NCBI GenBank assembly: GCA_963727625.1
Contig: CAVSHR010000008.1
Span: 32,001 to 96,000 of the forward strand
Length of the DNA: 64,000 nt
From: an uncultured delta proteobacterium
GTDB lineage: Bacteria > Desulfobacterota > Binatia > UBA9968
Direction: 5' to 3'
In this document: piece by piece, positions 8,878 through 60,434 of the stretch
Layout of the letters: each line of letters begins with the position of its first letter
Numbering within the stretch: position 1 is the first letter of the stretch
Program-made: the position numbers and the translations under genes
The notes under the pieces: generated by a model
The model's input: the letters and a program-made list of their open reading frames with translations, nothing else
Databases searched by the model: none
Told to the model about the DNA's origin: nothing

Positions 8878-8918
8878 AAACAAAGAGAGTGGCAGTTCTT
8901 ACATACCGAAGTCTTGTG

Positions 8919-8956: not shown

Positions 8957-8973
8957 GTCCAGGAGTTGACGAC

Positions 8974-9456: not shown

Positions 9457-9497
9457 AGCGCCGTCAGCGGCGGGGCCGGCCCATCTGGAAAGGGAGC

Positions 9498-13698: not shown

Positions 13699-13794
13699 GA
13701 AAAAACAGGTTGGGGTGTTGGAGTGATGAAGTGGCGGGCCGGCCCAATGCGCCAACGGTCCATCGCATTAATCTTTGTAGCTAGGAGTCGTCAT

Positions 13795-14802: not shown

Positions 14803-14808
14803 CGGATT

Positions 14809-15843
14809 ATGAGCCAAGAGTCTAGAGTATCCAGTTTGACGCAGGGGCCGGCAAAAATCGCCGCAAGCGTGGCGGCTTTCTTGCGCGGCTCTCGGCGTGA
14901 AAAGATCGTTCCGCCGCTCGCGCATCCGGCCGCTGGATCTCAACCCGAGACCCCAGAGGCAAAATCGGAAACCTTCTTCGATACCGAGTTCCTGCGCAAA
15001 ATCGAGCGTCTTCGTCTGGTCGCCAAGCGGCTCAGCTGGGCGGGCGCCAAAGGCGAGCATGCCGCGTCACGCAAGGGTTTTAGCCTGGAGTTCTCCGACT
15101 ACCGGCGCTACCAGCGGGGCGATGACCTGCGCTACGTCGACTGGAATATTTACCGCCGGCTCGATCGCCTGCTCCTCAAAGTCTTCACTTCCGAGGAGGA
15201 GTTAAACATTTATCTGCTGGTCGACACCAGCCGCTCGATGGCCGAAGGCGCCCCGGCGAAGCTCGACTACGCCAAGAAGGTTGCGGCGGCGCTGGGTTAC
15301 ATCGGTCTTAAAAATCTCGATCGGGTCGGCGGCGCCTGTTTCTCGACCCGCATCCACGAGCCGTTGACCCTGGGACGGGGCAGAAAACAGATTCTCAACC
15401 TGTTCCGCTTCCTCGGCAAACTTTCCTGCGGCGGTGAAACCAACCTGCGCGCGGCGGTCCACTCGTTTACCAATCTCTTTCCGCATCCGGGTTTCGTCGT
15501 GATCGTCAGCGATTTGTTCGATCCGGCCGGCTGGCGCGCGGCTCTGGAAGAGCTTCGCGCGAAGCGACACCAACTGCTGGTCATCCATGTCGTCGACGAG
15601 CAGGAGATCCGTCCCGAGCCCCGAGGCGACGTGGCCTTGGTTGACGTCGAGGGCGGCGCCGAGCGCAAGCTGTTTCTCGACGCCCAACTGGTTAAACGCT
15701 TCGAGGAAGAATTGGCGGCTTACTTTAAAGAGATCGAAACCATGTGCACCGGCCGGGGCATCGACTATTTGCGCACGACCACTCGGGTACCCTTCGAAGA
15801 GTTCGTTTTACAGACGCTGCGCCAGGTGAGCAGCGTGGCGTAA
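14809..15843 (+). CDS. DUF58 domain protein
   Basis: EFSDYRRYQRGDDLRYVDW and DTSRSM motifs; follows moxR. Confidence 0.92.
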   Translation: MSQESRVSSLTQGPAKIAASVAAFLRGSRREKIVPPLAHPAAGSQPETPEAKSETFFDTEFLRKIERLRLVAKRLSWAGAKGEHAASRKGFSLEFSDYRRYQRGDDLRYVDWNIYRRLDRLLLKVFTSEEELNIYLLVDTSRSMAEGAPAKLDYAKKVAAALGYIGLKNLDRVGGACFSTRIHEPLTLGRGRKQILNLFRFLGKLSCGGETNLRAAVHSFTNLFPHPGFVVIVSDLFDPAGWRAALEELRAKRHQLLVIHVVDEQEIRPEPRGDVALVDVEGGAERKLFLDAQLVKRFEEELAAYFKEIETMCTGRGIDYLRTTTRVPFEEFVLQTLRQVSSVA

Positions 15844-15846
15844 GTT

Positions 15847-44707: not shown

Positions 44708-44783
<76 letters not shown>

Positions 44784-44886
44784 ATTTACTTTCCAGCATA
44801 GTCCTAAGAAGTCCATTAACCCATTGTAGCTAAACAGTTTTTTCTGGTATAGTGTCCGGCATGGTCCGATGCCGTTCAGGTAAAGC

Positions 44887-44948
44887 TGCCCCCATATTGG
44901 GGGCAACTCTGGGGGCAACTGGGTGACCAGGAAAGTGAGTTGCCCCCA
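44887..44948. repeat. Integrase arm-type binding repeats
   Basis: TGGGGGCAACT at 44898-44908 and 44910-44920, with inverted copies at 44938-44948 and (shorter) 44887-44894, between tRNA and integrase. Confidence 0.75.
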
Positions 44949-44949
44949 T

Positions 44950-46183
44950 ATGCCGCTAACTGACACTGCTATTCGCTCTGCAAAGCCCCAAAGATAAAAC
45001 TTTTAAGCTTTTCGATAGCGGAGGGCTTTACCTTGAAGTAAACCCCGCCGGGGGCAAGTGGTGGCGCTGGAAGTACCGTTTTGCCGGCAAGGAGAAGCGG
45101 CTGTCGCTTGGGGTTTATCCGGATGTGAAATTGAAAGCGGCGCGGGAGAAGCGCGATGCTTCTCGCCAGCAGCTCGCCGCCGGCATCGATCCAGGCGAGG
45201 CGCGCAAGGCGGAAAAGCAGTCCCAGGCCGGTGCGGAGAGTTTCGAGGCGATCGCGCGCGAGTGGCATGGTAAGTTTTCGCCGAGCTGGGAAGCTAGTCA
45301 CAGCGAGCGCATCTTGCGGCGGCTCGAAAGGGATGTCTTTCCATGGATCGGCAAGCGGCCGATTGCCGAGATCAAAGCGGCCGAACTCTTGGCCATGCTG
45401 CGCCGGGTTGAGAGCCGGGGCGCGCTGGAGACCACCCACCGCGCCAAGCAGAACTGCGGGCAGGTGTTTCGCTACGCTGTGGCGACCGGCAGGGCCGAGC
45501 GCGATCCGACGGGCGATCTGCGCGGCGCCTTGCCCTTACCGCAGGAAAAGCACCATGCCTCGATCATCGAGCCGAAGCGCGTCGGCGCACTGCTGCGCGC
45601 GATCGACGGCTATGAAGGATTCTTTGCCACGAAGTGCGCGCTACGGCTCGCGCCGTTGGTGTTCGTGCGGCCTGGAGAATTGCGCAGGGGACAGTGGCAG
45701 GAGATCGATCTTGAGAAGGGCGAGTGGCGTATCCCTGCCGAGCGCATGAAGATGCGCGAGCAACATATCGTCCCGCTGTCGCGCCAAGCCGTCGAAATCT
45801 TGCGTGAGCTGGAGCCTCTGACGAACCGCTCGATTCCATCGAGGCCCGGCGCTCCATGTTATGTTTTCCCGAGCGCGCGAACGCGGGAGCGGCCTATGAG
45901 TGAAAATGCTGTCCTGGCAGCGTTGCGGCGTATGGGTTACACGAAGGAAGAAATGACCGGTCATGGATTCCGCAGCATGGCATCCACCTTGTTGCACGAA
46001 CAAGGCTGGAACCATCAAGCGATCGAGCGCCAGCTTGCCCATGCCGAGCGCAACGCCGTAAGCGCGGCCTACAATTTCGCCGAGCACCTGCCGGAACGGC
46101 GCAAGATGATGCAAGCTTGGGCGGATTATTTGGACAGTCTAAAAGCCGGTGCGGGGGTGATTTCGCTGTTCAAGAAGGCGTAG
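44950..46183 (+). CDS. P4-like tyrosine integrase with an apparent frameshift near codon 13
   Basis: MPLTDTAIRSAKP then (other frame) KDKTFKLFDSGGLYLEV...KWWRWKYRF arm-binding domain; catalytic VRPGE, MKMR..H, HGFR, QLAH and AAYN. Confidence 0.9.
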
Positions 46184-46185
46184 GC

Positions 46186-46212
46186 ACCCTCGACCTCTTG
46201 AATGCCATTCAA
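46186..46212 (-). repeat. 27-bp inverted copy of the tRNA-Ala anticodon-to-T-stem segment
   Basis: Reverse complement equals 44735-44761 (TTGAATGGCATTCAAGAGGTCGAGGGT). Confidence 0.9.
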
Positions 46213-46259
46213 AAATCAATCGTGACTAGATCCTAAAACAACCAGCAAAGCCCAACAAT

Positions 46260-46310
46260 AACAAGCCCCAGGCGCTGCCTTACACGGCGGTTCTTGGGGC
46301 TTGTTGTTTC
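46260..46310 (+). terminator. Hairpin, possible bidirectional terminator after the integrase
   Basis: AACAAGCCCCAGG (46260-46272) pairs with CTTGGGGCTTGTT (46293-46305), followed by GTTT. Confidence 0.5.
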
Positions 46311-46400
46311 TGGTATGCGGACAAAAAGCGGACAGAGGTCGCAAACAAAAGGTCGGCGATTAACGGATCACAGTTTGCTGTATGACTTGCGCGATTGAAA

Positions 46401-46469
46401 GTAGACGCGCCGGACTCAAAATCCGGTAGGGGAAACCCTGTGCGGGTTCAAGTCCCGCCTCCGGCACCA
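46401..46469 (+). pseudogene. 5'-truncated tRNA-Leu(CAA), att-like remnant
   Basis: GTAGACGCG-CCGGA-CTCAAAA-TCCGG, long variable arm, GGTTCAAGTCC, ...CCGGCACCA; 5' acceptor strand and most of the D arm absent; preceded by GCGGACA direct repeats (46317, 46328). Confidence 0.85.
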
Positions 46470-46636
46470 CTTGATCCTTAGGGGTCACTGGTGACTAGAC
46501 CGAATCGAAAAAATTTTTCCTCACTTTTTGTTTGTTGCTCACCAATTGATTTGGCCGGATTAAGCTGCGGGGCGTGCGTTGCGCCTGCAACGCCGTTGCC
46601 GCTGGGAAATATGACCTGAAGTGACTTTTTCTACAC

Positions 46637-46706
46637 CCTCAACGTTCGACAAGAATGCTCTGACTCGGTGTGCCTGGGCAGGTCAGCTTGATGGAGAGGT
46701 TAGTCC
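46637..46706 (-). repeat. Degenerate integron attC-like site downstream of the cupin gene
   Basis: Minus strand GGACTAAC-ctctccatcAAGCTGacctgccc...tgtcgaac-GTTGAGG; near-complementary GTTAGCCC lies just upstream of the cupin RBS (47240-47247). Confidence 0.45.
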
Positions 46707-46733
46707 TTTTTGTTACATCACCTGCCCAAACGA

Positions 46734-47213
46734 TTAGTACGGGGAGCCATCCCTGTGCAAAAACTTCCACTTCCCATCAACCATCACCGCCTTGAGGTCA
46801 TCATCAGGGTAGCTGCCTTCATCGCCAGGCGTTCTGTCTCCCACTTCAAGGTAGGTAACCGCTTCCTCGGTTTCGTTGATCAATCGGTGGCCGTTGCCAG
46901 TGCCCGCCTTGAACCCAGCACACATGCCCGGCGAGAGTCTCGTTCGACCTTCGTCAGTTTGAAGAGTTGGGTGCCCCTGCAAGATGTAGACAAACTCGTC
47001 TTGCTTGGTGTGAGCGTGGCGCAGCGCCGACGCCGCCCTCGGAGCAAGCCAGGTCAGATTCACCCCGAAGTTGGTGAGACCAAACAAGTCACCCAACGGC
47101 TGCTTTTGCCTGCCTGCCATTCGGGATGCGAAGGGCTCGGGGTAGGTTGACACCTTCGTTTTTCGCGGCGCTTTATCTGCGATGACAGTAACAGGGAATG
47201 CTGGATTTGCCAT
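46734..47213 (-). CDS. Cupin domain protein
   Basis: LGDLFGLTNFGVN, RHAHTKQDEFVYIL, GFKAG.GNGHRL and YPDDDL; AAGGAG RBS before ATG 47213. Confidence 0.9.
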   Translation of the reverse strand: MANPAFPVTVIADKAPRKTKVSTYPEPFASRMAGRQKQPLGDLFGLTNFGVNLTWLAPRAASALRHAHTKQDEFVYILQGHPTLQTDEGRTRLSPGMCAGFKAGTGNGHRLINETEEAVTYLEVGDRTPGDEGSYPDDDLKAVMVDGKWKFLHRDGSPY

Positions 47214-47522
47214 GCGTTGCTCCTTGTCGACGCCTATAAGGGCTAACTCGGGAGTACAGTGACGAGTATATTGCCGATTGCAAAACATCCCAGCGAGATA
47301 GGAGTTGTCAATCGATTTTCGTCGGCCTTTATTTCAACATAGCTGCAACGCACATCTCCCCCAAGAAATTGAATTGATCGACGCAATGAATCGAACTAGC
47401 AGAATTAATTCGTCGGAGAAAAAATTCAATTACACAATTACGCTCGCGGCGGTGAGCGGCCGCAGCAAGTTAGTCTGAGCCAGATGGTCCTATCAAAAGT
47501 TTTGTTGTGCCGCCTTTCCCGC

Positions 47523-47918
47523 CTACTTCGTCCATGCCACATTCTCAATCACGACGCGATATCCGTCGAGATCTTCAAATGTCTTGCCATGAGCATCCCA
47601 ATAGGGATTGTAGGACCGCACGCTTCAAAACCCAGCGGCAAGCATGCGATCACAGGCATGCTCCCATTCATTCTTGTCCGCGATGTAAAACACCAACAAA
47701 TGATCCATTGCTGGCGCCGTGCCGATGTGGTGCCCCCGTTGCGACATGAATTCCAGATGGTAGGGGTGCTGCGGATGTCCGAGAATCACCCCGTCGAAGC
47801 CTTCATGATTCACAAACTCGGCGAGACTGCTCACGCCGAGGCCCTGTTCGTACATGCCGGCAATTGCGGACACCTTGTCCGTTGTGCGAGCGACACGCAT
47901 AATATGTACAGGATTCAT
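47523..47918 (-). pseudogene. VOC/glyoxalase (YycE-like) protein with one in-frame TGA
   Basis: RVAR.T, HEGFDGVILG, YHLEF, LLVFY, TGA at 47625-47627, then in-frame SYNPYWD..G.TFEDLDGYRVV to TAG. Confidence 0.85.
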
Positions 47919-47970
47919 AGTTCGCACCTCCTCGTAGCGGCATTACTTTTATTGCCGCGCACGTCCCACG

Positions 47971-49221
47971 CTATGCGTCACCTGCACGCACGACCACACG
48001 CCCGGTCATATACGGGTGCACCGAGCAGTGGTAATCATAGATGCCAGGCCGATCAAACTGACGGTGAAAACTTGCTCCCGGCAGCAACAAGTCTGTTCCC
48101 TTTGCACCGTCCTCGTACTCAAGCCCATGCGGTGCGCCGTCGTCATTGATCCAGGTGACGCGTTCCCCCGGAGCTATCGTGACCTGCGATGGCGTGAATG
48201 CAAAGTTAATGATCGATACCTTAGCGCCGCTGCTCGCCATTTTCGTCGCGGTGCCTTGGACAACAACCTTACGCGGCGCATTGCCCACTGCGATTGTTTT
48301 CGTCTGACCGGTAAGGAGATTGATGATGCTCAGATCGTTCGAGCCCTCATTGGTCACATACGCTTTCTTGCCATCACCGGAGGCGGTCGCCCAGTGCGGT
48401 TGTTTGCCTACCGCGACGCTGCGCACCGGCTTGTTGGTCGCCGGGTCGAACAATAGCAGCTCGCCCGACCCTTGCACGACGATTAGGCCGAACGCCGAGC
48501 CGCTCGGGTAACCAACGTAATGGGGCGATACGCCCGTTGGAATCTCTGCGATGATCTTTTGCGACGCTGGATCCAGAACCTGGACTGAGCTAACTCCGGC
48601 TTGCGTAAAGTAGAACCGCTTTCCATCGTAACTAAATTCCCCGTCGCGGGGCGTCTTCTCAACCGCCACGGTGCTAACAACCGTGCGCTTTGCCAGGTCG
48701 ATGCGGGCGAGCCCATAGTGCCCTGGTTCCTGCACCGTGACGTACGCGAACTTGCCGTCGGGACTGATCGCAACCGTATGAGGTTTAGGGAGGGACATTG
48801 TAGCAACCACTGTTAGTGTGGAAGTATCAATGAAGTCTATGCGGTTGTCGCCGTTAACCGTGACCACCAGCAGCCGGTTGTCAGGCGTGAGCGCCACTCC
48901 GTTCGGCGCCTTGCCAACATCGATCGTCTTAACCACTTTGTCGGTCGCCGTGTCGATCACGTCAAGCGACGAAGAGCCGTCGCCGCTGACATATACCTTG
49001 CGACCGTCCTGCGTTATCGCCATGCCATGCGGACCCGCGGAAACCGGGACGGTCGTAACCACGGCCCCCGCCTCTATATCGATTACGCTCACCGTGTTGT
49101 CTTTGAAATTGCTGACATAGGCCTTCGGCCCTGCAGCGAGAGCGGCAGTTGCCACCAAGGTAGTCAAAATAGCCGCAACATATGAGAGCCGGCCCAGCCG
49201 GTATTGAAATATTGGAAACAT
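47971..49221 (-). CDS. Exported YVTN/YncE beta-propeller fused to a C-terminal cupredoxin
   Basis: Signal peptide, repeated AYVSN/VYVS/AYVT/YVTN blades; FAFTP...PH...YHCSVHPYMTG type-1 copper motif. Confidence 0.9.
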   Translation of the reverse strand: MFPIFQYRLGRLSYVAAILTTLVATAALAAGPKAYVSNFKDNTVSVIDIEAGAVVTTVPVSAGPHGMAITQDGRKVYVSGDGSSSLDVIDTATDKVVKTIDVGKAPNGVALTPDNRLLVVTVNGDNRIDFIDTSTLTVVATMSLPKPHTVAISPDGKFAYVTVQEPGHYGLARIDLAKRTVVSTVAVEKTPRDGEFSYDGKRFYFTQAGVSSVQVLDPASQKIIAEIPTGVSPHYVGYPSGSAFGLIVVQGSGELLLFDPATNKPVRSVAVGKQPHWATASGDGKKAYVTNEGSNDLSIINLLTGQTKTIAVGNAPRKVVVQGTATKMASSGAKVSIINFAFTPSQVTIAPGERVTWINDDGAPHGLEYEDGAKGTDLLLPGASFHRQFDRPGIYDYHCSVHPYMTGRVVVRAGDA

Positions 49222-49278
49222 GGGAACCTCCTTATTGCGTTAAAGTAATAACTGCGCACCGCGATTGCTTTACCGCGT

Positions 49279-49305
49279 ATACCACGCACCGGCTGCTTTT
49301 ATTCC
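49279..49305 (-). promoter_or_regulatory. Putative ECF-sigma promoter of the YVTN-cupredoxin gene
   Basis: GGAAT-N18-GTAT. Confidence 0.65.
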
Positions 49306-49591
49306 CGGCCACGATGTTGTCAGCAACAAATGCGGAGCTAGCAACGAGTCGAGGCGGAACGTCGGTTCCGTTGCAATGAAGTTTTGAGTATTATCGGCGG
49401 GACATATTCATGACTGATCCAAAAACAAGCATGGTTCAAAAACTTACGCCATGAAATGACTTTGGGGACGTCTGCAAACTCACGCGCACTTCATTTTGCC
49501 TGATCTCAAGTTCGCAGGATTATGTTGATGGAGCATTCAACTCAATGTGAAATTGAGTCATTCCGAACAAAGAACAATTTGACGATGATCT

Positions 49592-50359
49592 TTATGATAG
49601 GGCTGACAACTGTGCTTTCAGTATTTGGGTGAATTTTTCAAGCTGGCTTTTTTCGAGATCAGACACAACCCAAAAAGTCATGCGCAATTGGTTCCAGTTA
49701 AAAATATTGTATCCCCGACGTGTGACCGCAGTATCGCCATCTACACTTTCGCCTGATGGCCAAATAAATACATTAATGAGGTGTTTATCGCGTTGGTAAA
49801 CCAGCGCAGCGACCGGTCTGTTGTTGAGATAATCAAGGCGTCCGCCCACTAATGGAAATCCCTGGGCAGCCAGATTCGCCACTGGCGGTGAAAAATCTAA
49901 CTTGCCATTGAACCACGGCTTAACCGTGTGTTGATCCGATGAAGGAACGTCGGTTAAATGGTTGGCCATTAGGGAACGAGCATGGCTGGAGATCACTTCC
50001 TGGGCCAGGGTTCCCTCGGGAGAAGGTCCGCGGAAAAACGGGACCAGAGTCAAAATTACAAGCGCAGCGGCGGCTATGGGACTTGCGACTCGGGCCCACG
50101 ACCAAAGCGATTTCCGAAGCGACGGATCGTCCTTGGCGGCCCGCTGTAAAGCGCGCTGAATGCGCTTCTGGAGATCCGGCGGCGCATTGAAATAGACCGA
50201 GTTCATCCTTAGCCCATCGCGAATGACTTGGCGGTTTTTATAGCGCTCCGAGCAAGGGGCACACGCATGAAGATGATCTTCGACCTCCAAGTTGCGCATC
50301 AAATCCATTTCTCCGTCGATGTATGCGTCGATTAGGGTTTGTGCGTTTGTACAGTCCAC
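49592..50359 (-). CDS. Zinc-binding transmembrane anti-sigma factor
   Basis: HLHACAPC (HxxxCxxC), one TM, SSDQHTVKPWFNGKLDFSPPV and LVGGRLDY. Confidence 0.9.
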   Translation of the reverse strand: MDCTNAQTLIDAYIDGEMDLMRNLEVEDHLHACAPCSERYKNRQVIRDGLRMNSVYFNAPPDLQKRIQRALQRAAKDDPSLRKSLWSWARVASPIAAAALVILTLVPFFRGPSPEGTLAQEVISSHARSLMANHLTDVPSSDQHTVKPWFNGKLDFSPPVANLAAQGFPLVGGRLDYLNNRPVAALVYQRDKHLINVFIWPSGESVDGDTAVTRRGYNIFNWNQLRMTFWVVSDLEKSQLEKFTQILKAQLSALS

Positions 50360-50360
50360 C

Positions 50361-50891
50361 TTAGGGCTTCTCCTTAAGCCGAGCGCACAAAATTCGCTTG
50401 AGCCGAGCTCGCGCACGCGCCAGTCGCGACATGACTGTACCCAAAGGAACTTTGGTCATTTCCGCTATTTGCTTATAAGAGAATTCTTCCAGATCACGCA
50501 AGACTATTATCTCCCGAAAGTCAGCCGGTAATTGCTCCAGCGATTCTTTGAGCATCTCCACGTCGCGGCTCTTAAGCACCAACGCCGCGGGATTCAATGT
50601 GTCATCCTCGGCCGTTTGTATTTCCTCATCCAACTCGGTCGTACTATTGTACCCACGATTTTGTTGCAGCCAAGTGTAACAAGTGTTGCGCACGATGGTG
50701 AGTAACCAGGCGCGAGCGTCCGTCCCGCGAAAACCGTCGAAGAATTTAAACGCGCGCAAGTATGCCTCTTGCACCATATCCTCTGCATCGTGCTCATTGC
50801 GCGTCAACCAGCGAGCTAAGTTGTATGCAGTATTCATATAAGGCAAGACGGTTTGCTCAAAACGCGCCAGTTTATCTTTATCTTTCCACAA
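50361..50891 (-). CDS. ECF RNA polymerase sigma factor
   Basis: AYNLARWL, DAEDMVQEA, WLLTIVRN and SYKQIAE...GTVMSRLARAR; true start may be GTG at 50889 if one A is a sequencing indel. Confidence 0.93.
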   Translation of the reverse strand: MWKDKDKLARFEQTVLPYMNTAYNLARWLTRNEHDAEDMVQEAYLRAFKFFDGFRGTDARAWLLTIVRNTCYTWLQQNRGYNSTTELDEEIQTAEDDTLNPAALVLKSRDVEMLKESLEQLPADFREIIVLRDLEEFSYKQIAEMTKVPLGTVMSRLARARARLKRILCARLKEKP

Positions 50892-50894
50892 TTA

Positions 50895-50921
50895 AGACTC
50901 GCCCTCCCTCCTTTTTATTCC
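50895..50921 (-). promoter_or_regulatory. Putative autoregulatory ECF promoter (leaderless transcript)
   Basis: GGAAT-N18-GTCT a few nt before the sigma start. Confidence 0.7.
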
Positions 50922-51083
50922 TGGGGAACCCGAGAAAAACGGATACGGCTTATTGCTTGGGCATTGGTCGGCGCGGAGTGTATTAGGCACTGTGAGAAAA
51001 GTCAATGAAGGTGAAATCGGTTTCTAATGAATTGTTCCGCAAATGCCCCGCGAAGGGACGTTTTCAGAAAAGTTTTCATCGCG

Positions 51084-51110
51084 GGAATATTTTCGGGTGC
51101 TTCTTTGTCA
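51084..51110 (+). promoter_or_regulatory. Putative ECF promoter facing the MFS gene
   Basis: GGAAT-N18-GTCA. Confidence 0.55.
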
Positions 51111-51581
51111 ACGGAGCATATACAACGAATTGATCGCGATCGAGGTGGTTAGGATGAAGAACAGGAGATAGTCGTTGCAGATGCGTTTCTACGGAGAGTT
51201 ATTGGTTTGGTAGGCCCGTCTGCGCGTGGTCATGACGGAGCAGTGATCTCTAAAGAAGGCTTAAAAGATGGGAGTCTCTGCCAAATTCAATTCCTGGCAT
51301 TGCACGAAGTTACTCTGATCGAGCCTGTTGCAATGCTAAACCCAAACCATGACATCGACTCTTCGTTTCCTGCTCCGCCGAGCCGCGGGCAAGAACAAGA
51401 TACAGACCGAAAGAATCGAGGCAGAGCATAGGAGTGCCTCGGATTGCAAGGAATAAATTCATGTTGTGAGAGACCTGGGAGAAGGCGCGAGTTCTTTTCC
51501 AAATCGTCGCGCCGCGCCTATGACAAGATTGTTACCTCTCAAACGAAACCAATACGCCTCACTCGATAGAGGAACTCGACA

Positions 51582-52913
51582 ATGAAGAGTATTCATGATC
51601 ATGAACTGTTAAGAAGTTCATCGGCCTGGGCTCCACTGCGTAAACCACTTTTTCGAGCGCTCTGGATTTCCTCTCTTACGTCAAGCATCGGCACCTGGAT
51701 GCACGAAGTTGGCGCCGCGTGGCTCATGACCTCGCTGACGCTGTCACCTATGATGGTGGCGCTCTTACACACCGCGGCGAGCCTCCCCATGTTTCTGCTG
51801 GCCCTCCCTGCGGGAGCGATTGCCGACATGTTGGATCGGCGCAAAATCTTACTATTCACACAGGGCTGGATGCTCGCTTCAGCGGCAGTGCTTTGTGTGG
51901 TTACGGCTTTGGGTGTGATCACTCCGTGGTTGTTACTCATTCTGACATTCGCCCTTGGTGTCGGCGCGGCAATGAATGCCCCTGCGTGGCAGTCGACGAT
52001 CCCCGAGTTTGTCCCTGCTGCGAATATTCCGGCCGCAGTGGCTCTAACCGGTCTGGGCTTGAACTTAGCGCGCGCTGTGGGACCGGCAATTGGCGGAGCC
52101 ATAGTGAAAGGGGTCGGAGCTTGGGCGGTCTTTCTTTTGAATGCTGCTTCGTTTCTCGGAGTGATAGTGGTCCTCTTTTGCTGGCGCGGCACATCAGAGC
52201 AGAAGCCATCACCGGCCAGTCCCGTAATGAGTAACATCGGTGAAGGAATCCAATACGCTTTACACGAACCGGGTCTGCGCGCAGTGCTGGTTCGTGTCAG
52301 TCTTTTCGTACCATTTGCAAGCGCCTTGTGGGCTTTGGTGCCACTACTGGCCCGCCACGATCTAGCACTGAATTGCTCCGACTATGGAGCCCTTTTTGGC
52401 TGCTTGGGCATAGGCTCAGTGATGGGTGCCCTATTTCTCCCCAAGTTACGTTGCCACTTTGCCACTGACACCCTTGTGGGCAGCGCCACCATTCTGTTTG
52501 CGGCAGCGACAGCAGCGTTGGCCGAGGTCCGTCATTTTGGATTGTTATGTTTGGTGTTGATGGTCGGGGGCATGGCATGGATTACCTTGATGTCCGCTTT
52601 CAATGTAGCAACCCAGATGGCGGTACCGTCATGGATCAGGGCTCGGGCGCGAGCCTTATATCTCTTGGTCTTCCACGGTTGCATGACTGTTGGAGGCGTG
52701 TTTTGGGGCGTGCTAACCGAGCATGCGGGAGTCTCTGCCTCGCTCCTAGGCGCAGCGGCAGGAATGGTCGTGGGTGTCGCGGCTATTAGGCTGTGTCCGC
52801 TACCGGAATCAGGGATGAGTTCTACGACTCACCGGCCGGAGCCGACTCGCGAAAGTATGGGCCTATCATCCGTGGCAGCTGGTGCTTATGGGCATCGGTC
52901 AAATATGGGTTAG
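51582..52913 (+). CDS. MFS transporter (MFS_3/DUF894 type)
   Basis: FRALW..S.IGTWM..VGAAWLM, GAIADMLDRR, NLARAVGPAIGG; about 12 TM. Confidence 0.9.
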   Translation: MKSIHDHELLRSSSAWAPLRKPLFRALWISSLTSSIGTWMHEVGAAWLMTSLTLSPMMVALLHTAASLPMFLLALPAGAIADMLDRRKILLFTQGWMLASAAVLCVVTALGVITPWLLLILTFALGVGAAMNAPAWQSTIPEFVPAANIPAAVALTGLGLNLARAVGPAIGGAIVKGVGAWAVFLLNAASFLGVIVVLFCWRGTSEQKPSPASPVMSNIGEGIQYALHEPGLRAVLVRVSLFVPFASALWALVPLLARHDLALNCSDYGALFGCLGIGSVMGALFLPKLRCHFATDTLVGSATILFAAATAALAEVRHFGLLCLVLMVGGMAWITLMSAFNVATQMAVPSWIRARARALYLLVFHGCMTVGGVFWGVLTEHAGVSASLLGAAAGMVVGVAAIRLCPLPESGMSSTTHRPEPTRESMGLSSVAAGAYGHRSNMG

Positions 52914-53274
52914 AGCACTCCATTGAGTAAACAAATTGCGAACAGAATGGTTGAACGCGAAAAGTACCATTCACTTTAGCTGGACGGTAAAAAAAGGAAA
53001 ATGATGCCGGTCGCGGCCTCAGCGAACAGAGTTTAGTTCGATCCTCCCGAGAAATGTCAAGAATCGTCGGCCGTGATTCGGCCAGCGTTACTAATCAATT
53101 GGTTGGATTCAGTTGATCGAGAAATAAAGGCACTTTCAAAAAACATCGAAACAGATTTTCCGCGTTTTCGCCGGGCGCGAAGCATCGACGGTTGGAGTGC
53201 GCGTGGAACGACGGTGAGAGGCGTTCTCACTTTGTTGAGGGGGTTAGATAAAATGCTGTCTGGTTTGACTGTGT

Positions 53275-53364
53275 GACTTACACATTTTCTTACACAGTCA
53301 CATAATTTACAAAAATAAAACTAATACTATTAAATAGTTAACGTTAGACGCGCCGGACTCAAAA
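53275..53364 (+). repeat. 90-bp att-like module, copy 1, ending in a tRNA-Leu(CAA) core
   Basis: GACTTACACATTTTCTTACACAGTCA, AT-rich spacer, ATAGTTAAC, then TAGACGCGCCGGACTCAAAA identical to 46402-46421. Confidence 0.85.
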
Positions 53365-53439
53365 GTTATCCTTTGTCGGGCAAATCTGTCCGGGCTAAAC
53401 ACAAACACGGGGAGCGAATCCTATAACTGAACCAGCAAT

Positions 53440-53473
53440 GCGAGCGTGGCGGAATGGCAGACGCAGTGGACTC
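53440..53473 (+). pseudogene. 5' exon of a tRNA-Leu(CAA) gene
   Basis: GCGAGCG-TG-GCGGAATGGCAGACGC-A-GTGGA-CTC; TATAAC box at 53422-53427. Confidence 0.85.
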
Positions 53474-53660
53474 AAACCAAACTTGAGTGCTTGTGCGGGA
53501 AACCGCCGATGTAGAACTGCTCAAAGTCGGGGAAGCCTGTAACATGGTAATCCCGAGCCAAGCCCCTTAAGCAGGGGAAGGTGTAGAGACTAGACGGGCA
53601 GCACCTAAGTAACGGATTCGATCCGCGATATGGTGAAGGGATAGTCCAGACTCCAAACCG
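53474..53660 (+). ncRNA. Group I intron (IC3, tRNA type), 3' truncated
   Basis: P1 ACTCAA/TTGAGT, P2 with GAAA loop, P3 CTGCTC/GGGCAG, P4 TCGGG/CCCGA, GAGCCAAG, GAAGGTGTAGAGACTAGACGG, P8 with CCTAAG/TATGG receptor, P7 GACTA/TAGTC; no P9/omega-G/3' exon follows directly. Confidence 0.88.
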
Positions 53661-53736
53661 GTTGTCATAACATCAGGCATGAGACATCAACGTGCATTGA
53701 ATCGGAAGTCCATTTCGCTCACGTCCGACCGAGCGA

Positions 53737-54351
53737 CTAATCGCAGCAAGTATCGCCACGTAGGGCTTCGATTCCTTCTTTAGCGATGATCGGAACCATC
53801 GCCAAAGCGGCTACTGGATCAGCCCACCACCAACCAAATAGAGCGTAAAGTCCGAGGCCGAGCACAAGGATTGCTGACAAATAAGCGCAAATGTCGGTCT
53901 GCCTAGAATCGGCGTGCATGGCTTGGCTCTTGATCGACGAAGCCACTTTGCGTTTGGCCGATGCGAGAAGGGGCATCACGATTAAGGATAAGATTGCCAC
54001 ACCGATACCAACATAACTTTTTTCCGGTGCCTCGCGAAACCACAGAGTCGTTACAGCATCGATCGCAACGTACGCGGCGAGCGCTAAAAAGCTGAAGCCG
54101 ACCAGTTTTAAGGCGATCTGCTCCCGATGTTCCCCGGAAACCAGACGCCACAGCAACACCGCTCCCGATGAGACTTCGATCACCGAATCAATGCCAAAGC
54201 CGACAAGCGCAACGCTCCCTGCAACGATACCGGCGCCGATAGATATGATGGCCTCGAGTGAGTTCCAGCCAATCGTGAGATATTCGAGTCTGCGCCCACG
54301 TCGGACAATAGCAGCACGGGGATTTTCTTGAGTTACAACTTCTATGCTCAT
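53737..54351 (-). CDS. Cation diffusion facilitator-like (Co/Zn/Cd) transporter, short form
   Basis: TIGWNSLEA, SVALVGFGIDS.IE, ADSRQT..C and WWWADP; six TM. Confidence 0.88.
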   Translation of the reverse strand: MSIEVVTQENPRAAIVRRGRRLEYLTIGWNSLEAIISIGAGIVAGSVALVGFGIDSVIEVSSGAVLLWRLVSGEHREQIALKLVGFSFLALAAYVAIDAVTTLWFREAPEKSYVGIGVAILSLIVMPLLASAKRKVASSIKSQAMHADSRQTDICAYLSAILVLGLGLYALFGWWWADPVAALAMVPIIAKEGIEALRGDTCCD

Positions 54352-54532
54352 TTTTGAAATGTATCAGTCAGCACATAAACGGAGCAATACCGCTTGCAAG
54401 ACGATCTCTGTTCCGCACTAGATTGTTGCCCCTTGACCTGAATTTTGGTTTAAAGTTTTACATACCTTGTTAAAAACGGATGGCCACAATCATGGCACGG
54501 GCGGTGTCGGCGTCGGTGGACCGTAATGGCTA

Positions 54533-54559
54533 AGGGTTCAACTCCCTCCGCCCGCACCA
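54533..54559 (+). repeat. tRNA 3'-end remnant (Leu-type), att-like
   Basis: AGGG-TTCAACT-CCCT-C-CGCCCGC-ACCA: T arm, acceptor strand, discriminator A and CCA. Confidence 0.75.
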
Positions 54560-54632
54560 TCCTTTCTTACGGTCTTCCTTTTACCTCTGCTCTCTCCTAG
54601 AGCGGGCGGGTGCGAATAGCCAGTCAGTCCGT

Positions 54633-56933
54633 TTAGCTGGAGAACGCGAATTGATTCTCTCTGAATAGCTGTATGCATGCATCGGCGACGGCTACGTCAT
54701 AACTGCTGCCCCGGTGTGCCGAGATTTCCTCAAGGGCTCTCTCTATCCCGAGACCGGGCCGATACGGGCGGTGCGAGGCCATCGCCTCGACGGTGTCTGC
54801 CACTGCAAGGATTTTCGCGCCAATCAGGATCTCCGGGTCTTTCAGTCCGCGCGGATAGCCGGACCCGTCAAGCCGTTCGTGATGCTGATAAACGATTTGC
54901 GCAATCGGCCACGGGAAATCGATTTCCTTGAGGATGCTGTAACCCGCCTCGGCGTGGGTCTTGATCAGTTCATATTCCAATGAGGTGAGGCGCGAAGGTT
55001 TTGAGAGAATTTCGGCTGGCACCGTGAGTTTTCCAAGATCATGCACAATCCCGGCGAGACGAATGCCGTTAATCTCGTCCTCGGCTAGATTGAGTTTGCG
55101 AGCAATGGCCTCGGCAAGTTCAGCTACCCTGCGTTGGTGTCCCGCCGTGTAGGGGTCGCGCATATCTACGGTGGCAGCCATCGCGGATATAGTCCCTTCC
55201 ATACTACGTTTCAGACGTTCAGCGCTTTGCGCATGTGCCGCCCTAACCCTCAAGGTCGCTATGCCGAAGGCGAGATCATCCGCGAGCTCGCCGAGTAACC
55301 GGACTTCTTCTTGATCGAAGCCGTTCCGTTCCGCTGCATAGATGCTAAGCGCCCCGAACACACTGCCATTGTTTTGGAGCGGAGCGGCCAGCACCGAACC
55401 GTAACCAGTCCTGATCGCGTCATCTCGCCACGACGCATACCCTGGATCTTCAAGAACGTTCTGCACCAGTTGAATGCTTCGCGTCCGAATGGCTTTACCG
55501 ACAGGACCGCTCCCGAGTTCATTATCAGCCCAACTTCTTGTTTTACATGGTTCCGGGCAGCCGTCATCGTAGCCCCATTGGGCAACCTGCCGCACAGTCT
55601 TCTCGGCGTCACCCTCGGCATAGCCGATGCAGGCAACACGATAGCCGGCGATGTCAACAATAATGCGGCACAGTTCGCGCACCAGATCGTTTTCGTCTAT
55701 TGCGTGAATGATAGCATCGTTACAATGACTCAAGGCCGTCAATGCCCGGGTCAGTTTCCGCTGCGTAACCTCGGCCCCTTTGCGCTCGGTAACATCGCGA
55801 AAGAACCACACCCGCCCGTAATACGTGGAATCCGCGCCGAACATGCCGGAAGAATAGCGATCGATGGTTCGACCGTCCTTCAGCTCGATTTCTTCGTGGC
55901 TGGTCTCATCTTTGTGTTCGTAGAGAAATTGGACTCTCGTGACAAACGCCGCCGGATCGCTGACCTGCCCTCTGACGTTTTGCAACACCGGCGCGTCTAT
56001 GCCGGCGATTACCATCTCCTCAGGCACCTTCCACAAATCGACAAACTGCCGATTGTACGAAATGATCTCTGCCTGCTCGTTGACAACCAGGATGGCGTCC
56101 GGGGAAACCTGCTGCTGGGTCGTGAGCACAGCGTTCTTGAATTGCAACTCGTGCAGGATCTGCTGGCGACCCGTGATATCCCGGGCGTTAATGATAATCC
56201 CGCCGATCAGCGGATCATCGAGCACATTCTTGGTGATCGTCTCAAGCAGCAACCAATTTCCATTCTTATGCCGGTAGCGAAGTTCCGCACTGTTATTAGA
56301 TGTTCCCACCGTGTTTGCGGCAGGCGCTAGCATGGTCAGCGCAACGGTCAAATCGTCCGGGCACAAAAATTCCCTGATGTCGCGATTGAGGAATTCCGAG
56401 GGTTCGTATCCCAGGATTCGTTCGACGTTCGGGTTGGCGTAGGTGATCGTGCCCCGGCTGTCGACAATTGCAATCAAATCTGAACTGTTTTCGATCAAAG
56501 CTCGAAAGCGCCGATCATGATCAGCCACAGCCAGCTCGGATCGGTTGCGCTCGGTCGAGTCGCGCAAAACGAGTTGGAAACCTTTTTCATTTTCGTGGCG
56601 GTAAGAGGTTACAGTAATTTCAACGTCAACCGAGGTGCCATCTGCTTTTAGCAGTCGATCTTCAAAGCGGACTAGCCCGATCTTGCAGGCTTGGAGTTCT
56701 TTGATGCTCGCGTGAACCCTCTCCAGGGACGTTGGCGGAATGAAATCGAACACGGACTGCCCCACGATTTTCGCGGGGTGCGTAACTCCGAGCAGTTTCG
56801 CGCAAGCGTCATTGACAAGCACGATTTTTCCGTTCGTTTGGATAAGAATTCCGTCAGGAGAGAGTTCAAATAGGTGATGATAACGGTCATCTGATTCCCG
56901 CAGTAATCTGGCGCTAAGCTTTTCGGCATACAT
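54633..56933 (-). CDS. PAS-PAS-PAS-GAF-HD-GYP cyclic di-GMP phosphodiesterase
   Basis: Three PAS repeats, GAF (GSGPVGKAIRT), RDPYTAGHQ, HDLGK and HHERLDGSGYPRGL. Confidence 0.93.
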   Translation of the reverse strand: MYAEKLSARLLRESDDRYHHLFELSPDGILIQTNGKIVLVNDACAKLLGVTHPAKIVGQSVFDFIPPTSLERVHASIKELQACKIGLVRFEDRLLKADGTSVDVEITVTSYRHENEKGFQLVLRDSTERNRSELAVADHDRRFRALIENSSDLIAIVDSRGTITYANPNVERILGYEPSEFLNRDIREFLCPDDLTVALTMLAPAANTVGTSNNSAELRYRHKNGNWLLLETITKNVLDDPLIGGIIINARDITGRQQILHELQFKNAVLTTQQQVSPDAILVVNEQAEIISYNRQFVDLWKVPEEMVIAGIDAPVLQNVRGQVSDPAAFVTRVQFLYEHKDETSHEEIELKDGRTIDRYSSGMFGADSTYYGRVWFFRDVTERKGAEVTQRKLTRALTALSHCNDAIIHAIDENDLVRELCRIIVDIAGYRVACIGYAEGDAEKTVRQVAQWGYDDGCPEPCKTRSWADNELGSGPVGKAIRTRSIQLVQNVLEDPGYASWRDDAIRTGYGSVLAAPLQNNGSVFGALSIYAAERNGFDQEEVRLLGELADDLAFGIATLRVRAAHAQSAERLKRSMEGTISAMAATVDMRDPYTAGHQRRVAELAEAIARKLNLAEDEINGIRLAGIVHDLGKLTVPAEILSKPSRLTSLEYELIKTHAEAGYSILKEIDFPWPIAQIVYQHHERLDGSGYPRGLKDPEILIGAKILAVADTVEAMASHRPYRPGLGIERALEEISAHRGSSYDVAVADACIQLFRENQFAFSS

Positions 56934-57385
56934 ATCGACTCTCTTGCTGCACCAGAGTCGTAGCGAAGAGCAGATTAAATATGTGTTGGTGCTGAGGCAT
57001 TAACTATCAAGTTTCCAGAAACCCACGAAACCAATTGAACTAGGATGAGCGTGCTTGCAAACTTAGGAAATCCGGTATGCGGCACGGTAACAAAGACGTC
57101 TATAACAACGCAGGCGCAAAGGTCGCGCCAAAAGACTTAAACCGCCAAGCATCTAAATTATCGACATTAATCCTTCGGTCGGGGGACCGGTATAACAGTT
57201 ACAATGACGAAATCTTCTATTTTTTGTACATATATGGACGAGATGAACTCGTATGGGCTGAAATTTCCCCCTGAATGTGCAGCTGTGAAGTGCGCGGCGA
57301 ATGCGAACGGTTCCCGTTTCTTTACAGATTTTCTTGTTCTGAACCTGTTGTAGGTTCGTAATGAGGCAGTTCAACTGGCTTGTGA

Positions 57386-57477
57386 GACTTACACATTTTC
57401 TTACACAGTCAGATTTTAATTTTCGAATATATTAATTATTACAGATAGTTAACATCAGAAGCAGAAGACTCAAAATC
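57386..57477 (+). repeat. 90-bp att-like module, copy 2
   Basis: Same 26-mer as 53275-53300, with ATAGTTAAC and GACTCAAAA at identical offsets (+59, +81). Confidence 0.85.
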
Positions 57478-57513
57478 TGATGCGGTCAGTTTGACCAACC
57501 TCAAGCGGGGTGG

Positions 57514-57540
57514 GAGCTATTGATTGCTAATCAATTGGTC
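57514..57540 (+). repeat. Degenerate tRNA anticodon-arm remnant (Lys-like)
   Basis: GAGCT-ATTGA-TTGCTAA-TCAAT-TGGTC forms a 5-bp stem/7-nt loop with tRNA-type flanks; CTAATCAATTGGT recurs at 53091-53103. Confidence 0.45.
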
Positions 57541-57632
57541 CCTCACAATCAATGGAAATCAAAAGACTTTTTTACGACTGTCCATGAATTTGTCCGTGGG
57601 ACTCCCGTGCGTTCCAACCAATTGCGCAAACA

Positions 57633-57923
57633 GCCTATGAGTGAGAACGCCATACTGGCGGCACTGCGGCGGATGGGTTACCCGAAAGAGAAATGACCGG
57701 CCATGGATTCCGCAGCATGGCGTCGACGCTGCTGCACGAACAAGGCTGGAATCATCAAGCGATCGAGCGCCAGCTTGCCCATGCCGAGCGCAACGCCGTA
57801 AGCGCGGCCTACAATTTCGCCGAGCACCTGCCGGAGCGGCGCAAGATGATGCAGGCTTGGGCGGATTATCTGGACGGGCTAAAAGCTGGGGCGGAATTGA
57901 TACCGTTGTTTAGGAAGGCGTAA
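57633..57923 (+). pseudogene. Second copy of the integrase 3' end
   Basis: Colinear with 45892-46183 (PMSENA...HGFRSMAST...AAYNFAEHL...FRKA) with mostly synonymous differences and one 1-nt deletion. Confidence 0.92.
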
Positions 57924-58039
57924 GCCGGTCGATGTGAATCTAAATTCCCCCGATGAGGACTATCGGAAGATTCACGAGGAGATTCAGGAAGCCAGGCGAT
58001 GGTTGGCCGCGAAGAAAGATAAGCCGATCATCCACTAAT

Positions 58040-58300: not shown

Positions 58301-58434
58301 AACCTGCGAGAATTGCAGGCTAGATTTTTTAGCATTAAGGCAGTTTATAGGCGAAGCAAAACTAAAGGCCAAGCCATCTTAGTTCATGGCAGACGGCAAA
58401 CACTTTCAATCGTAAAGACCGCTGACGCGTTAGC

Positions 58435-60144
58435 TCACGGCACAAGCCCTGCAGCCTTCAGGGCTTTGTAGATCGTATAACCTCCGGACAGGTTCCTTGA
58501 GTGATACCCGTGCTGGGTTAGAAAACGGCTGGCGAAATACGCACGCTGTCCGACCGCGCAACACACCCAGATGTCGCGATCTTTTGGCAGCTCGGCGTAA
58601 CGGGAGCGCAGTTGGGAGAGCGGCAGGTTGATCGCCTTGGGTATGTGCCCGCGGCTAAACTCGTCGCCTTCGCGCACGTCGAGCAATAATGCGTCGGTGC
58701 GGTCAAGCTCCAGCCAATCTGCCACGGGCATGTCGCCATTCAGAACGTTCTCGGCAAGCATGCCGGCGAGGTTGACCGGGTCCTTGGCGGCGCCAAACTG
58801 CGGCGAGTAGCATAGCTCGGCCTCAGCCAGATCGTGCACCGTGCCGTGGAATTGAATTGCCGTGGCGATGACATCGATGCGCTTCTCCACGCCTTCAAAC
58901 CCCACCGCTTGTGCGCCGAGGATACGGCCGTCGGGCACGGAGAATACGAGTTTGAGATGGATCTGCCGCGCGCCGGGATAGTAGCCGGCGTGATGCCCCG
59001 GGTGAAGGTAGACTTTCTCGAAGCCCGTGACGCCGGCGCGTCGCAGTCCTTTCTCGCTCGCGCCGGTCGACGCGACGGTCAGACCCAACACGCCTACCAC
59101 GGCGGTCGCCTGCACGCCGCGGAACTGCGTCGTGCGCCCGGCGATCGACTCGGCGGCTACTCGTCCTTGCCGATTTGCCGGTCCCGCGAGAGGCAGCACC
59201 GTTTCTTGACCCGTAAGCACGTCTTGCACTTCAACGACGTCGCCCACCGCCCAGATACGGGGGTCGGTCGTGCGCATCTGCGCATCGACGACTATCCCGC
59301 CGCGCGGGCCGATCTCTAAACCGGCGTCCTTGGCAAGCGCGGTCTCGGGCCGCACCCCGATGGCCAGAATGACGAGATCTGCCGGCAAGCGTGCGCCGCT
59401 CTCTGCGACGACAACCAAGCCGGCGCCGTCGTGCTCTTCGATGCGCGCAAGCCCGTCGCCCAAACAGAGCTGCACGCCCTTAACAGCAAGGTGTTCCATC
59501 AGCGGCGCCGCCATCTCGGGGTCGAGCGGCGGCATGACCTGGGGCAGCTTCTCCAATACCGTGACGGCCAGCTCGCGATGGATCAAATTTTCGACCATCT
59601 CCAAGCCGATGAACCCGCCGCCGACCACAACGGCGGTCTTGGCGCTATGATCCGTAATCCACGAACGGATGCGGCGGGAGTCCGGGATCGTGCGCACGGC
59701 GAATACGCCGGGCAAATCTACGCCCGGGAGCTGGGGTCGAATCGGCGCGGCGCCGGGCGACAGGACAAGCGCATCGTAGTGCTCCGTGCGCCTGTGGCCT
59801 GTGCGGAGATCGCGCACGTTAATCGTGCCGGCGCTGCGGTCGATGCCAGTGGCCTCGGTATCGGTATGCACCTCGATATTGAAACGCTCATGAAACATTT
59901 CTCGCGACGCCACCAGCAGGCTGCTCTCATCAGAAATGACGTTGCCGACGTAGTACGGCAGCCCGCAGTTCGCGAACGAGACATACGGACCGCGGTCGAT
60001 CAAGACGATCTCGCTGGACTCGTCGAGCCGCCTCAACCGTGCCGCGCAGGAGGCGCCGCCCGCGACACCCCCGACAATGAGTACGCGACGGGGTGTCTCA
60101 CTGTTACGCGAAGCGGTTGACTGGGGGTCAGTTTGCTGGATCAT
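58435..60144 (-). CDS. CoA-disulfide reductase-rhodanese (NADH-persulfide reductase-like)
   Basis: GGVAGGAS.AARLRR, SFANCGLPY, GGGFIGLE, ANRQGR, HAGYYP; rhodanese LDVRE...CAVGQR; GGAGG RBS before ATG 60144. Confidence 0.92.
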   Translation of the reverse strand: MIQQTDPQSTASRNSETPRRVLIVGGVAGGASCAARLRRLDESSEIVLIDRGPYVSFANCGLPYYVGNVISDESSLLVASREMFHERFNIEVHTDTEATGIDRSAGTINVRDLRTGHRRTEHYDALVLSPGAAPIRPQLPGVDLPGVFAVRTIPDSRRIRSWITDHSAKTAVVVGGGFIGLEMVENLIHRELAVTVLEKLPQVMPPLDPEMAAPLMEHLAVKGVQLCLGDGLARIEEHDGAGLVVVAESGARLPADLVILAIGVRPETALAKDAGLEIGPRGGIVVDAQMRTTDPRIWAVGDVVEVQDVLTGQETVLPLAGPANRQGRVAAESIAGRTTQFRGVQATAVVGVLGLTVASTGASEKGLRRAGVTGFEKVYLHPGHHAGYYPGARQIHLKLVFSVPDGRILGAQAVGFEGVEKRIDVIATAIQFHGTVHDLAEAELCYSPQFGAAKDPVNLAGMLAENVLNGDMPVADWLELDRTDALLLDVREGDEFSRGHIPKAINLPLSQLRSRYAELPKDRDIWVCCAVGQRAYFASRFLTQHGYHSRNLSGGYTIYKALKAAGLVP

Positions 60145-60434
60145 GCAACCTCCGATTGAAGGCAGTGTGCGTATCGTAAATCCAGTACAGGCGAAAACAG
60201 CTTCTTGGCTGCCATCGAGAACGCTCTGCAGTGAGCAGCAATCTGACGACCGTCCTGCCAAGTCCTCGCCTTCGCTCTGTGAGCTGCATCATAGAAACCG
60301 GCCGATCCCCTTGAATTGGATTTCCCTTCAATTGTCCCTCACAGGCTGCTGTTCCATGTCATGGCGAATCAAGCATTCGAGAGTTACTTGATTGCTAACC
60401 AAGTGGGCTTTCTGATCACAAGCATTCCAATCGA

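Follow-up and report, generated by a model that had tools for sequence, protein, structure and literature searches.

The region at 46.2-57.6 kb of the 64,000-nucleotide stretch analysed here (the window, positions 32001-96000 of contig C8 in the source genome, G000, a member of the Binatia) holds a tandem array of small gene units without an integrase. We consider it likely that this is a misplaced and now inert array, whose units belong to a family that recombines at the anticodon loop of tRNA genes, in this case that of tRNA-Leu(CAA). Two complete units are present, E1 (46422-53364) and E0 (53365-57475), with a fragment bearing a cation diffusion facilitator (CDF) gene lying within E0, and three junctions (S1 to S3) carry the recombination sites. 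Contigs C2, C4, C9 and C12, referred to below, are other contigs of G000. In the window, tRNAs were called with ARAGORN and Rfam and protein domains with Pfam. The array consists of the following features, given in nucleotides (nt) of the window.

46403-46472, + strand: junction S1, a tRNA-Leu(CAA) lacking its first 19 nt, with the core GACTCAAAA at 46413-46421
46473-46525, + strand: left end of E1 (P' side), conserved and common to units with other cargo in G014 and G050
46734-52913: E1 cargo, namely a cupin, a 221-amino-acid open reading frame (ORF) of unknown function, a beta-propeller and cupredoxin, an anti-sigma factor (zf-HC2), an extracytoplasmic function (ECF) sigma factor and an MFS_3 transporter (Pfam)
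53119-53364, + strand: junction S2 and right end of E1, with a conserved P-arm region, arm repeats at 53276-53298, TAGTTAAC and the core at 53356-53364
53365-53439, + strand: P' side of E0, which does not continue the tRNA and is homologous to G005:C111 6737-6786 and to G050
53440-53473, + strand: 5' exon of an intron-bearing tRNA-Leu(CAA), from alignment with complete copies
53474-53685, + strand: group I intron truncated on its 3' side (Rfam RF00028 and alignment; intact copies are 256-260 nt)
53689-54533: interrupting segment, which carries on its - strand, at 53737-54351, a short CDF gene (Pfam Cation_efflux)
54534-54576, + strand: decayed 3' exon end of the same intron-bearing gene, its last 43 nt with substitutions, followed by a conserved downstream flank to 54613
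54633-56933, - strand: E0 cargo, a PAS-PAS-GAF-HD-GYP signalling protein (Pfam)
57181-57475, + strand: junction S3 and right end of E0, with a conserved region, arm repeats at 57387-57409 and the core at 57467-57475
57476-57632, + strand: right of S3, with no tRNA half and no homologue found, containing TGTCC twice

The three junctions share one core. The sequence GACTCAAAA was found on the + strand at 46413, 53356 and 57467 (four matches in the window against 0.48 expected), and the 23-nt arm ACTTACACATTTTCTTACACAGT at 53276 and 57387 (0 expected), with both counts above those of every shuffle. The two arm modules aligned across about 95 nt in the order GACTTACACATTTTCTTACACAGTCA, a 34-nt AT-rich spacer, TAGTTAAC, 13 variable nt and GACTCAAAA. 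The right end of a unit thus has the layout of the P arm of an attP, in which CTTACACA-TTTT-CTTACACA (repeats 12 nt apart) is followed by an AT-rich spacer with a site like that for integration host factor (IHF) and then by the core. The core at S1 retained both half-sites, CCGGACTCAAAATCCGG, and those at S2 and S3 each retained just part of the symmetric core; at S2, tRNA identity ended exactly after CTCAAAA. The P-arm region of S2 was 69% identical to G014:C31 22-251 and to C9:114720-114878, and the S3 region was 86-88% identical to the right end of one unit in G050. An initial annotation of this DNA had recognized an arm module with a Leu core twice and had taken these modules for attachment-type sites, a reading that is supported. 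It had also placed CDF and HD-GYP genes in blocks free of integrases, and the ORFs tested from 46403 to 57475 included no integrase by Pfam.

S1 was identical at all 70 positions to C9:101404-101473, where the real tRNA-Leu(CAA) of G000 (C9:101385-101470) has its 3' part, in agreement with the tRNA-Leu(CAA) 3' piece first noted there. No arm was seen to the left of 46403, and ARAGORN called no tRNA-Leu within the window. Since the array is headed by a 5'-truncated tRNA-Leu, it does not lie at the real gene. The initial annotation had further described Lys-like tRNA pieces and fragments of several different tRNAs. The motif in question, TAATCAATTGGT, occurs exactly at 53092 and 57528 and with one mismatch on the - strand at 46541, and it matched neither of the two tRNA-Lys genes of G000. 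The occurrence at 53092 fits WATCAANNNNTTR, which we take to be the IHF consensus. Judged by their sequence, the tRNA species represented in the stretch are Ala and Leu only, and the Leu pieces derive from just two gene types.

One of these types carries an intron. The copy in the window kept its 5' exon and about 210 nt of intron, including the catalytic core and the 5' splice site, and has lost the 3' part with the omega-G. Positions 53463-53664 matched the Rfam group I intron model with 45.1 bits (E 6e-9), under the gathering score of 50, and a tRNA-Leu 5' exon with an intron had already been proposed at 53440. The acceptor-stem pieces GCGAGCG (53440) and CGCCCGC (54570), previously attributed to different tRNA-Leu genes, are the two ends of this one gene; intact homologues read CGCTCGC, which indicates that the acceptor mismatch is a product of decay. 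The first 52 nt of the segment that interrupts the gene match non-coding DNA of G014 that separates the tRNA-Leu gene from the first cargo gene.

Complete copies of the intron-bearing gene were found at L091:8307-8648, L091:11227-11572 and L014:1511-1852 (genomes G005 and G050). Each has a 34-nt 5' exon, an intron of 256-260 nt and a 52-nt 3' exon, and in-silico splicing produced a perfect tRNA-Leu(CAA) cloverleaf for all three, a result that holds for the G050 copies too and so extends beyond G005, an unpublished genome. G050 contains the intron-bearing tRNA in four copies. In G005 the intron gene lies 190 nt past a split standard gene, and no further complete tRNA-Leu(CAA) was found in that genome; the position beside a split standard tRNA and the status as sole complete gene both rest on G005. 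P1 of these introns contains a C-1:G pair, and Williams (preprint) described the C-1 class as Leu.3Cg. All three complete copies show the features of this class (the core, the splice site after C34 and the omega-G before AAAA), and the likeness extends to insertion after anticodon-loop position 3 (C34), the C-1:G pair in P1 and omega-G followed by AAAA. The Williams survey comprised 72 cases, from Proteobacteria only, whereas here the gene is part of a unit bounded by att sites, is present in multiple copies in G050 and is broken in the window.

Related units occupy the true tRNA-Leu(CAA) in this and other genomes. On C9 the real gene is intact, follows a RadA-like gene and carries a 13.4 kb island. 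At its end this island repeats 64 nt of the tRNA 3' part, and the DNA before the repeat has 69% identity to window 53193-53364. None of the 10 larger ORFs tested in that island, transposase fragments and a MerR regulator among them, matched Phage_integrase; tblastn detected a short integrase remnant at C9:104131-104247. In G014 the tRNA-Leu(CAA) is followed by two units, each closing with an arm, a core and a tRNA 3' half, one of which carries a P-type ATPase and the other a cytochrome b561, a DUF1924 protein and dihaem cytochromes; three additional 3' halves lie on a separate contig. The array of G050 has about seven junctions in about 24 kb. Where their cargo is unrelated, units still have in common a left end of about 50 nt past the tRNA end and a right end of about 170-250 nt that finishes in the arm. 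For example, E0 and the G050 unit 11037-15214 have both ends in common and differ in cargo, CDF and HD-GYP genes in the former and a short-chain dehydrogenase/reductase and a MarR regulator in the latter. The resulting pattern, B-O-P' ... P-O-P' ... P-O-B', is that expected from tandem accretion.

The arm is not restricted to this lineage. An exact-match scan of a genome collection for CTTACACATTTTCTTACACA returned 56 occurrences in 55 loci of named metagenome-assembled genomes (MAGs) and isolates, including Alpha-, Beta- and Gammaproteobacteria, Acidobacteriota and Binatia among others; being exact, this count is silent on arm conservation across the whole family. Together with G014, G050 and G005, these loci place the modules beside alternative cargo, and the modules are not unique to this locus, as the initial annotation had anticipated for a true attachment system. 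An anticodon-loop core with a T arm stood 55-85 nt downstream of 40 of the 56 arm occurrences, and belonged to tRNA-Leu-UAA (13), Leu-CAA (12), Ser-CGA (6), Ser-UGA (5), CAU (3) or Phe (1). A further nine occurrences had the core only and seven had neither, some of the latter being cut by the end of the locus. Most loci have a WATCAANNNNTTR-like site between arm and core, presumably for IHF. The 20-mer arm had no matches in viral contigs, and the arm module gave only chance-level matches to plasmids (E 0.3-3). A literature search with the arm sequence returned unrelated papers only, and one on island-borne replacement tRNA genes nothing pertinent, which is no proof that either is unpublished.

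All-against-all clustering of ORFs from the 55 loci revealed no conserved protein beside the arm. Small units of 1.3-4.6 kb from tRNA to arm, in several phyla, had no integrase among the tested ORFs in five of five cases, and their cargo included an ECF sigma factor, a permease, an AAA ATPase and a TOTE primase-helicase with Fic. One unit in a tRNA-Leu(CAA) array of a gammaproteobacterium (L082:1667-4954) has cargo of the defence type, a TOTE-type primase-helicase and a Fic protein. A home-made recombinase profile matched ORFs in 4 of the 55 loci; this scarcity holds for that profile and for loci of 8 kb, and divergent integrases could escape it, the integrase of locus L093 scoring just 20.8 bits against PF00589.

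L093 provides an autonomous member of the family (4165-19130, reverse-complement orientation). Its left part consists of the 5' half of the host tRNA-Ser(UGA), the core, an IHF-like site, two copies of CTTACACA and the integrase, and its right part of a complete tRNA-Ser(UGA), 13 kb of cargo, the P arm, the core and the host 3' half. The displaced halves pair with each other, and in-silico excision and joining restored the tRNA-Ser. This type of integrase is present in 54 of 151 genomes of its order. Among 20 loci fetched with homologues of it (L107-L126), CTTACACA was upstream of the integrase in 19, and a complete tRNA followed the integrase by 75-149 nt in 16, all 16 of which had the matching core 121-205 nt upstream. 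The layout of L093 and the survey of these 20 loci indicate that the autonomous form splits a tRNA gene and supplies a replacement. Elements of the Micavibrio-type order split tRNA-Ser or tRNA-Leu at the anticodon loop and carry the replacement tRNA right after the integrase; in Ser-CGA and Leu-CAA cases this replacement is one base off the host core, beside the loop. Homologues of the L093 integrase on plasmids (Asticcacaulis, Rhizobium) were also considered and set aside; they are preceded by a tRNA 3' half, and CTTACACA does not occur close to them. Within the family, the autonomous form has its integrase-less equivalent in the E0 type, whose tRNA-Leu(CAA) bears an intron.

These observations suggest how such an array could be built. 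A unit of the E1 type begins with a copy of the tRNA 3' half and about 50 conserved nt; in the E0 type the P' sequence is another one and leads into a complete replacement tRNA-Leu(CAA) containing a group I intron. Units would accumulate by site-specific recombination at the junction cores, that is by tandem accretion, and the builder may have been a tyrosine integrase supplied in trans. In the window the replacement tRNA is broken, and the array lies inside an island at tRNA-Ala(GGC) with a frameshifted integrase of its own that uses other arm repeats. This larger island and the integrase remnants flanking the array were overlooked in the initial annotation. Its features are as follows.

44708-44783, + strand: tRNA-Ala(GGC) (ARAGORN, Rfam), attL of an island of about 35.6 kb and the only intact tRNA of the window
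44950-46183, + strand: P4-like tyrosine integrase (Pfam Arm-DNA-bind_3, Phage_int_M and Phage_integrase), frameshifted
46186-46340: Ala module, consisting of an inverted 27-nt tRNA-Ala copy (anticodon arm to T stem), a hairpin and GCGGACA-AAAA-GCGGACA
57633-57925, + strand: remnant of a second P4-like integrase, its 3' part of about 98 codons, with 88% identity to 45892-46185 and 85% identity to C12:426728-427021
C8:112378-112401, outside the window: attR of the island, a 25-nt direct repeat of the tRNA-Ala 3' end

The reading frame of the P4-like integrase is broken after about codon 14, relative to an intact 410-amino-acid homologue in G021. Arm repeats of the form GGGGGCARC are present at each end of the island (window 44790-44950; G000:C8:112300-112401), and in G017 the DNA adjoining tRNA-Ala matches C8:113187-114489, so that synteny resumes at about C8:113187. 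The tRNA gene, its direct repeat, the arms at both ends and the synteny with G017 together place the array inside a tRNA-Ala island of about 35.6 kb that extends beyond the window. The island thus has what a P4-like island comprises (a target tRNA gene, an adjacent integrase, a repeat of the tRNA 3' end and arms at both ends), the integrase being frameshifted though. This integrase was considered as the enzyme for the Leu arms and ruled out, as it has its own arms, GGGGGCARC, and its own core in the tRNA-Ala 3' end. Another integrase fragment of the enclosing island lies at C8:111563-111820.

The Ala module corresponds to the inverted Ala core that the initial annotation had listed at 46186, and 46186-46212 is indeed a perfect inverted 27-nt copy of tRNA-Ala(GGC) 44735-44761. 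The module, of about 150 nt, has four copies in the genome (the window, C12:427016-427170, C4:194846-194984 and C2:799227-799367) and is present in many relatives. It follows the stop codon of P4-like integrase copies and travels with the integrase in C12 and in relatives, and its layout imitates the order arm, spacer, core in reverse orientation. In one MAG (L061 1380-1600) two copies of CTTACACA are surrounded by numerous ATCGGACA repeats and lie 5 kb upstream of an integrase adjoining tRNA-Arg(CCG); the CGGACA repeats there are reminiscent of the GCGGACA repeats of the Ala module. To the right of the array, 58394-60181 is a 1.8 kb duplicate of C12:431098-432885 with 99.7% identity. It encodes a pyridine-nucleotide-disulphide oxidoreductase with a rhodanese domain, and both copies are within a few kb of a copy of the P4-like integrase, so that a segment of island DNA seems to have been duplicated recently. 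C12 also contains an island of about 10 kb at the transfer-messenger RNA (tmRNA) gene (G000:C12:415360-425880, L001), with its own integrase and a tmRNA 3'-end repeat, the latter directly abutted by a 5'-truncated copy of the P4-like integrase.

Several observations weigh against the account of the array as units laid down by an integrase of this family. No intact tRNA-Leu heads the array in the window and no homologue of its outer flanks, left of 46403 or right of 57475, was found, so integration in place is not demonstrated. Homologues of the E1 cargo genes in G024, G006 and G011 stand without arms or cores, and the idea that E1 recurs elsewhere as a unit was dropped for that reason. Homologues of the L093 integrase were found in only 2 of 123 genomes of the window's order (one of them unpublished), with 33-35% identity and no CTTACACA nearby. 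Another type of integrase, convergent with tRNA-Leu(CAA), is intact in G007 and survives as remnants in G050, G018 and on C9 of G000. In the relatives examined it was never seen with the CTTACACA arm in one unit. No integrase that reads CTTACACA arms was found in the window's lineage. With no close integrase match in G000 or its order, and with the G007 type unlinked to the arm, we read the array in the window as a fossil, probably inert now.

The initial annotation had instead inferred a live, integron-like platform, on which an integrase encoded elsewhere would still move units at the three cores. The S1 core with both half-sites, the conserved ends and exchanged cargo of units in relatives, and the 16 tyrosine-recombinase matches in G000 speak for it. 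None of the 16, however, is close to the family integrases, the best being about 25% identical or a 39-residue remnant, and G000 has no intact cognate integrase; in addition, the replacement tRNA is broken and decayed and the cores of S2 and S3 are only partly symmetric. Present-day movement in trans is accordingly very improbable, and the notion of a landing pad for several integrases found no support. Gene capture of an integron-like kind does stand in part for the family, without extending to present activity or to membership among integrons. Public reads came from a single run (X1) holding 9% of the sampled words, and its low-depth contigs, which are identical to the window where they align, include one that spans S2 (53294-53490) and no circle or deletion joints, and carry no weight for or against circles. 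A different history seems possible if somewhat doubtful: the array would have formed at the true tRNA-Leu(CAA), of this genome or of a donor, and recombination, whether illegitimate or homologous, would then have brought it into the tRNA-Ala island in one piece. It would fit the missing first 19 nt of the tRNA at S1 and the lack of an arm on the left of that junction, an S3 whose right flank is no tRNA half, and a neighbourhood that the integrase fragments and the 99.7% duplicate mark as rearranged. Against this, the donor junction was not found and the C9 locus retains its own intact tRNA and island; moreover, such a transfer concerns the arrival of the array only and is compatible with accretion as the origin of the units.

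We regard as unlikely that the units are ordinary full-size islands, each of which lost its integrase by deletion, with no class of small non-autonomous units behind them. Integrase remnants adjoin tRNA-Leu in G050, G018 and on C9, and such islands would match the definition of cis-mobilizable elements (CIMEs) in PMC5704250. Deletion accounts poorly for the five small units of several phyla, all of which kept both conserved ends and none of which had an integrase among the tested ORFs, and for arrays with up to about five to seven junctions.

A broader and more tentative proposal is that the CTTACACA-arm elements are a cross-phylum, tRNA-based counterpart of the integron, which we think rather unlikely to hold in full. 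A mobile platform, made of an integrase and a complete replacement tRNA, would split the host tRNA gene, and the platform's own tRNA would then serve as the docking site for the capture, stacking and shuffling of integrase-less cassettes. At its start each cassette would have either a whole replacement tRNA or just the 3' half of one, and at its end the conserved P arm and core; recombination between an internal tRNA core and a downstream core would free cassettes as circles. The group I intron may take the integrase target out of the DNA and so shield the replacement tRNA-Leu(CAA) from insertion. Gene blocks without a recombinase behind tRNA genes are appearing in many lineages, and this case adds a searchable signature (the 20-nt arm, the IHF-like site and the anticodon-loop core), complete autonomous relatives from which the construction of the family can be read, and an unusual upkeep of the tRNA by a whole replacement gene, here with an intron of self-splicing type. 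If it is true that a CTTACACA-reading integrase moves the small units, they would represent a second general route, besides integrons, by which single accessory genes are stacked. Sigma factors, defence genes and transporters for metals and redox functions are among the cargo encountered.

Integrons have an IntI-type integrase, an attI site and a cassette promoter, and their attC sites are imperfect inverted repeats recombined as folded single strands. The arrays described here resemble them in lining up accessory gene units that are poor in promoters and that each finish in a recombination site, and in that some relatives have an integrase gene beside the attachment tRNA. They differ in that there is no IntI and no integrase reading out of the array, the flanking integrases being P4-like by Pfam, and in that the genes lie on both strands with one to six per unit. 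By their sequence architecture the sites would be double-stranded and attP-like, with direct arm repeats, an AT-rich spacer with an IHF-like site and a tRNA core. The array is not an integron.

Closer likenesses are found among genomic islands. Islands of the Islander 'A'-site kind (Hudson et al. 2015, PMC4383910) share the tRNA gene with a direct displaced fragment, the tyrosine integrase and the crossover in the anticodon loop; in that scheme, an integrase is required for each island and the tRNA gene is restored by the attP fragment. An intact target tRNA gene is present at C9 and at the enclosing tRNA-Ala island and absent from the window array, which has only a frameshifted integrase to its left and only a 3' fragment to its right; the anticodon-loop crossover is evident from GACTCAAAA being common to all three junctions. 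Most units here lack an integrase, unlike islands so defined, and the autonomous relatives displace both halves of the host tRNA and place a complete tRNA after the integrase. Tycheposons of Prochlorococcus (Hackl et al., preprint 10.1101/2020.12.28.424599) integrate successively at one tRNA and leave degenerate elements, fragmented integrases and scattered partial tRNAs with adaptive cargo. The mode of growth, the remnants and the cargo are alike in both, whereas the lineage, the integrases and the arms differ, and no modules like those of phage-inducible chromosomal islands (PICIs) or for replication were seen here. Tandem accretion of CIMEs at the sites of integrative and conjugative or integrative and mobilizable elements (ICEs and IMEs; Guedon et al. 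2017, PMC5704250) is a further parallel, in that the ends of E1 and E0 are conserved relative to units of G014 and G050 and no recombinase lies inside. CIMEs are mobilized in cis by a related ICE or IME that inserts next to them, and no such helper lies in the array. Compared with CIMEs, the units here have no conjugative helper in sight, are small (1-7 kb) and keep conserved ends across phyla, and their crossover is in the anticodon loop; a whole replacement tRNA comes with one type of unit, and the window array lies off its target gene. The array is thus of a kind already known from CIME-type accretion and tycheposon-like islands, stranded in this case inside another mobile island.

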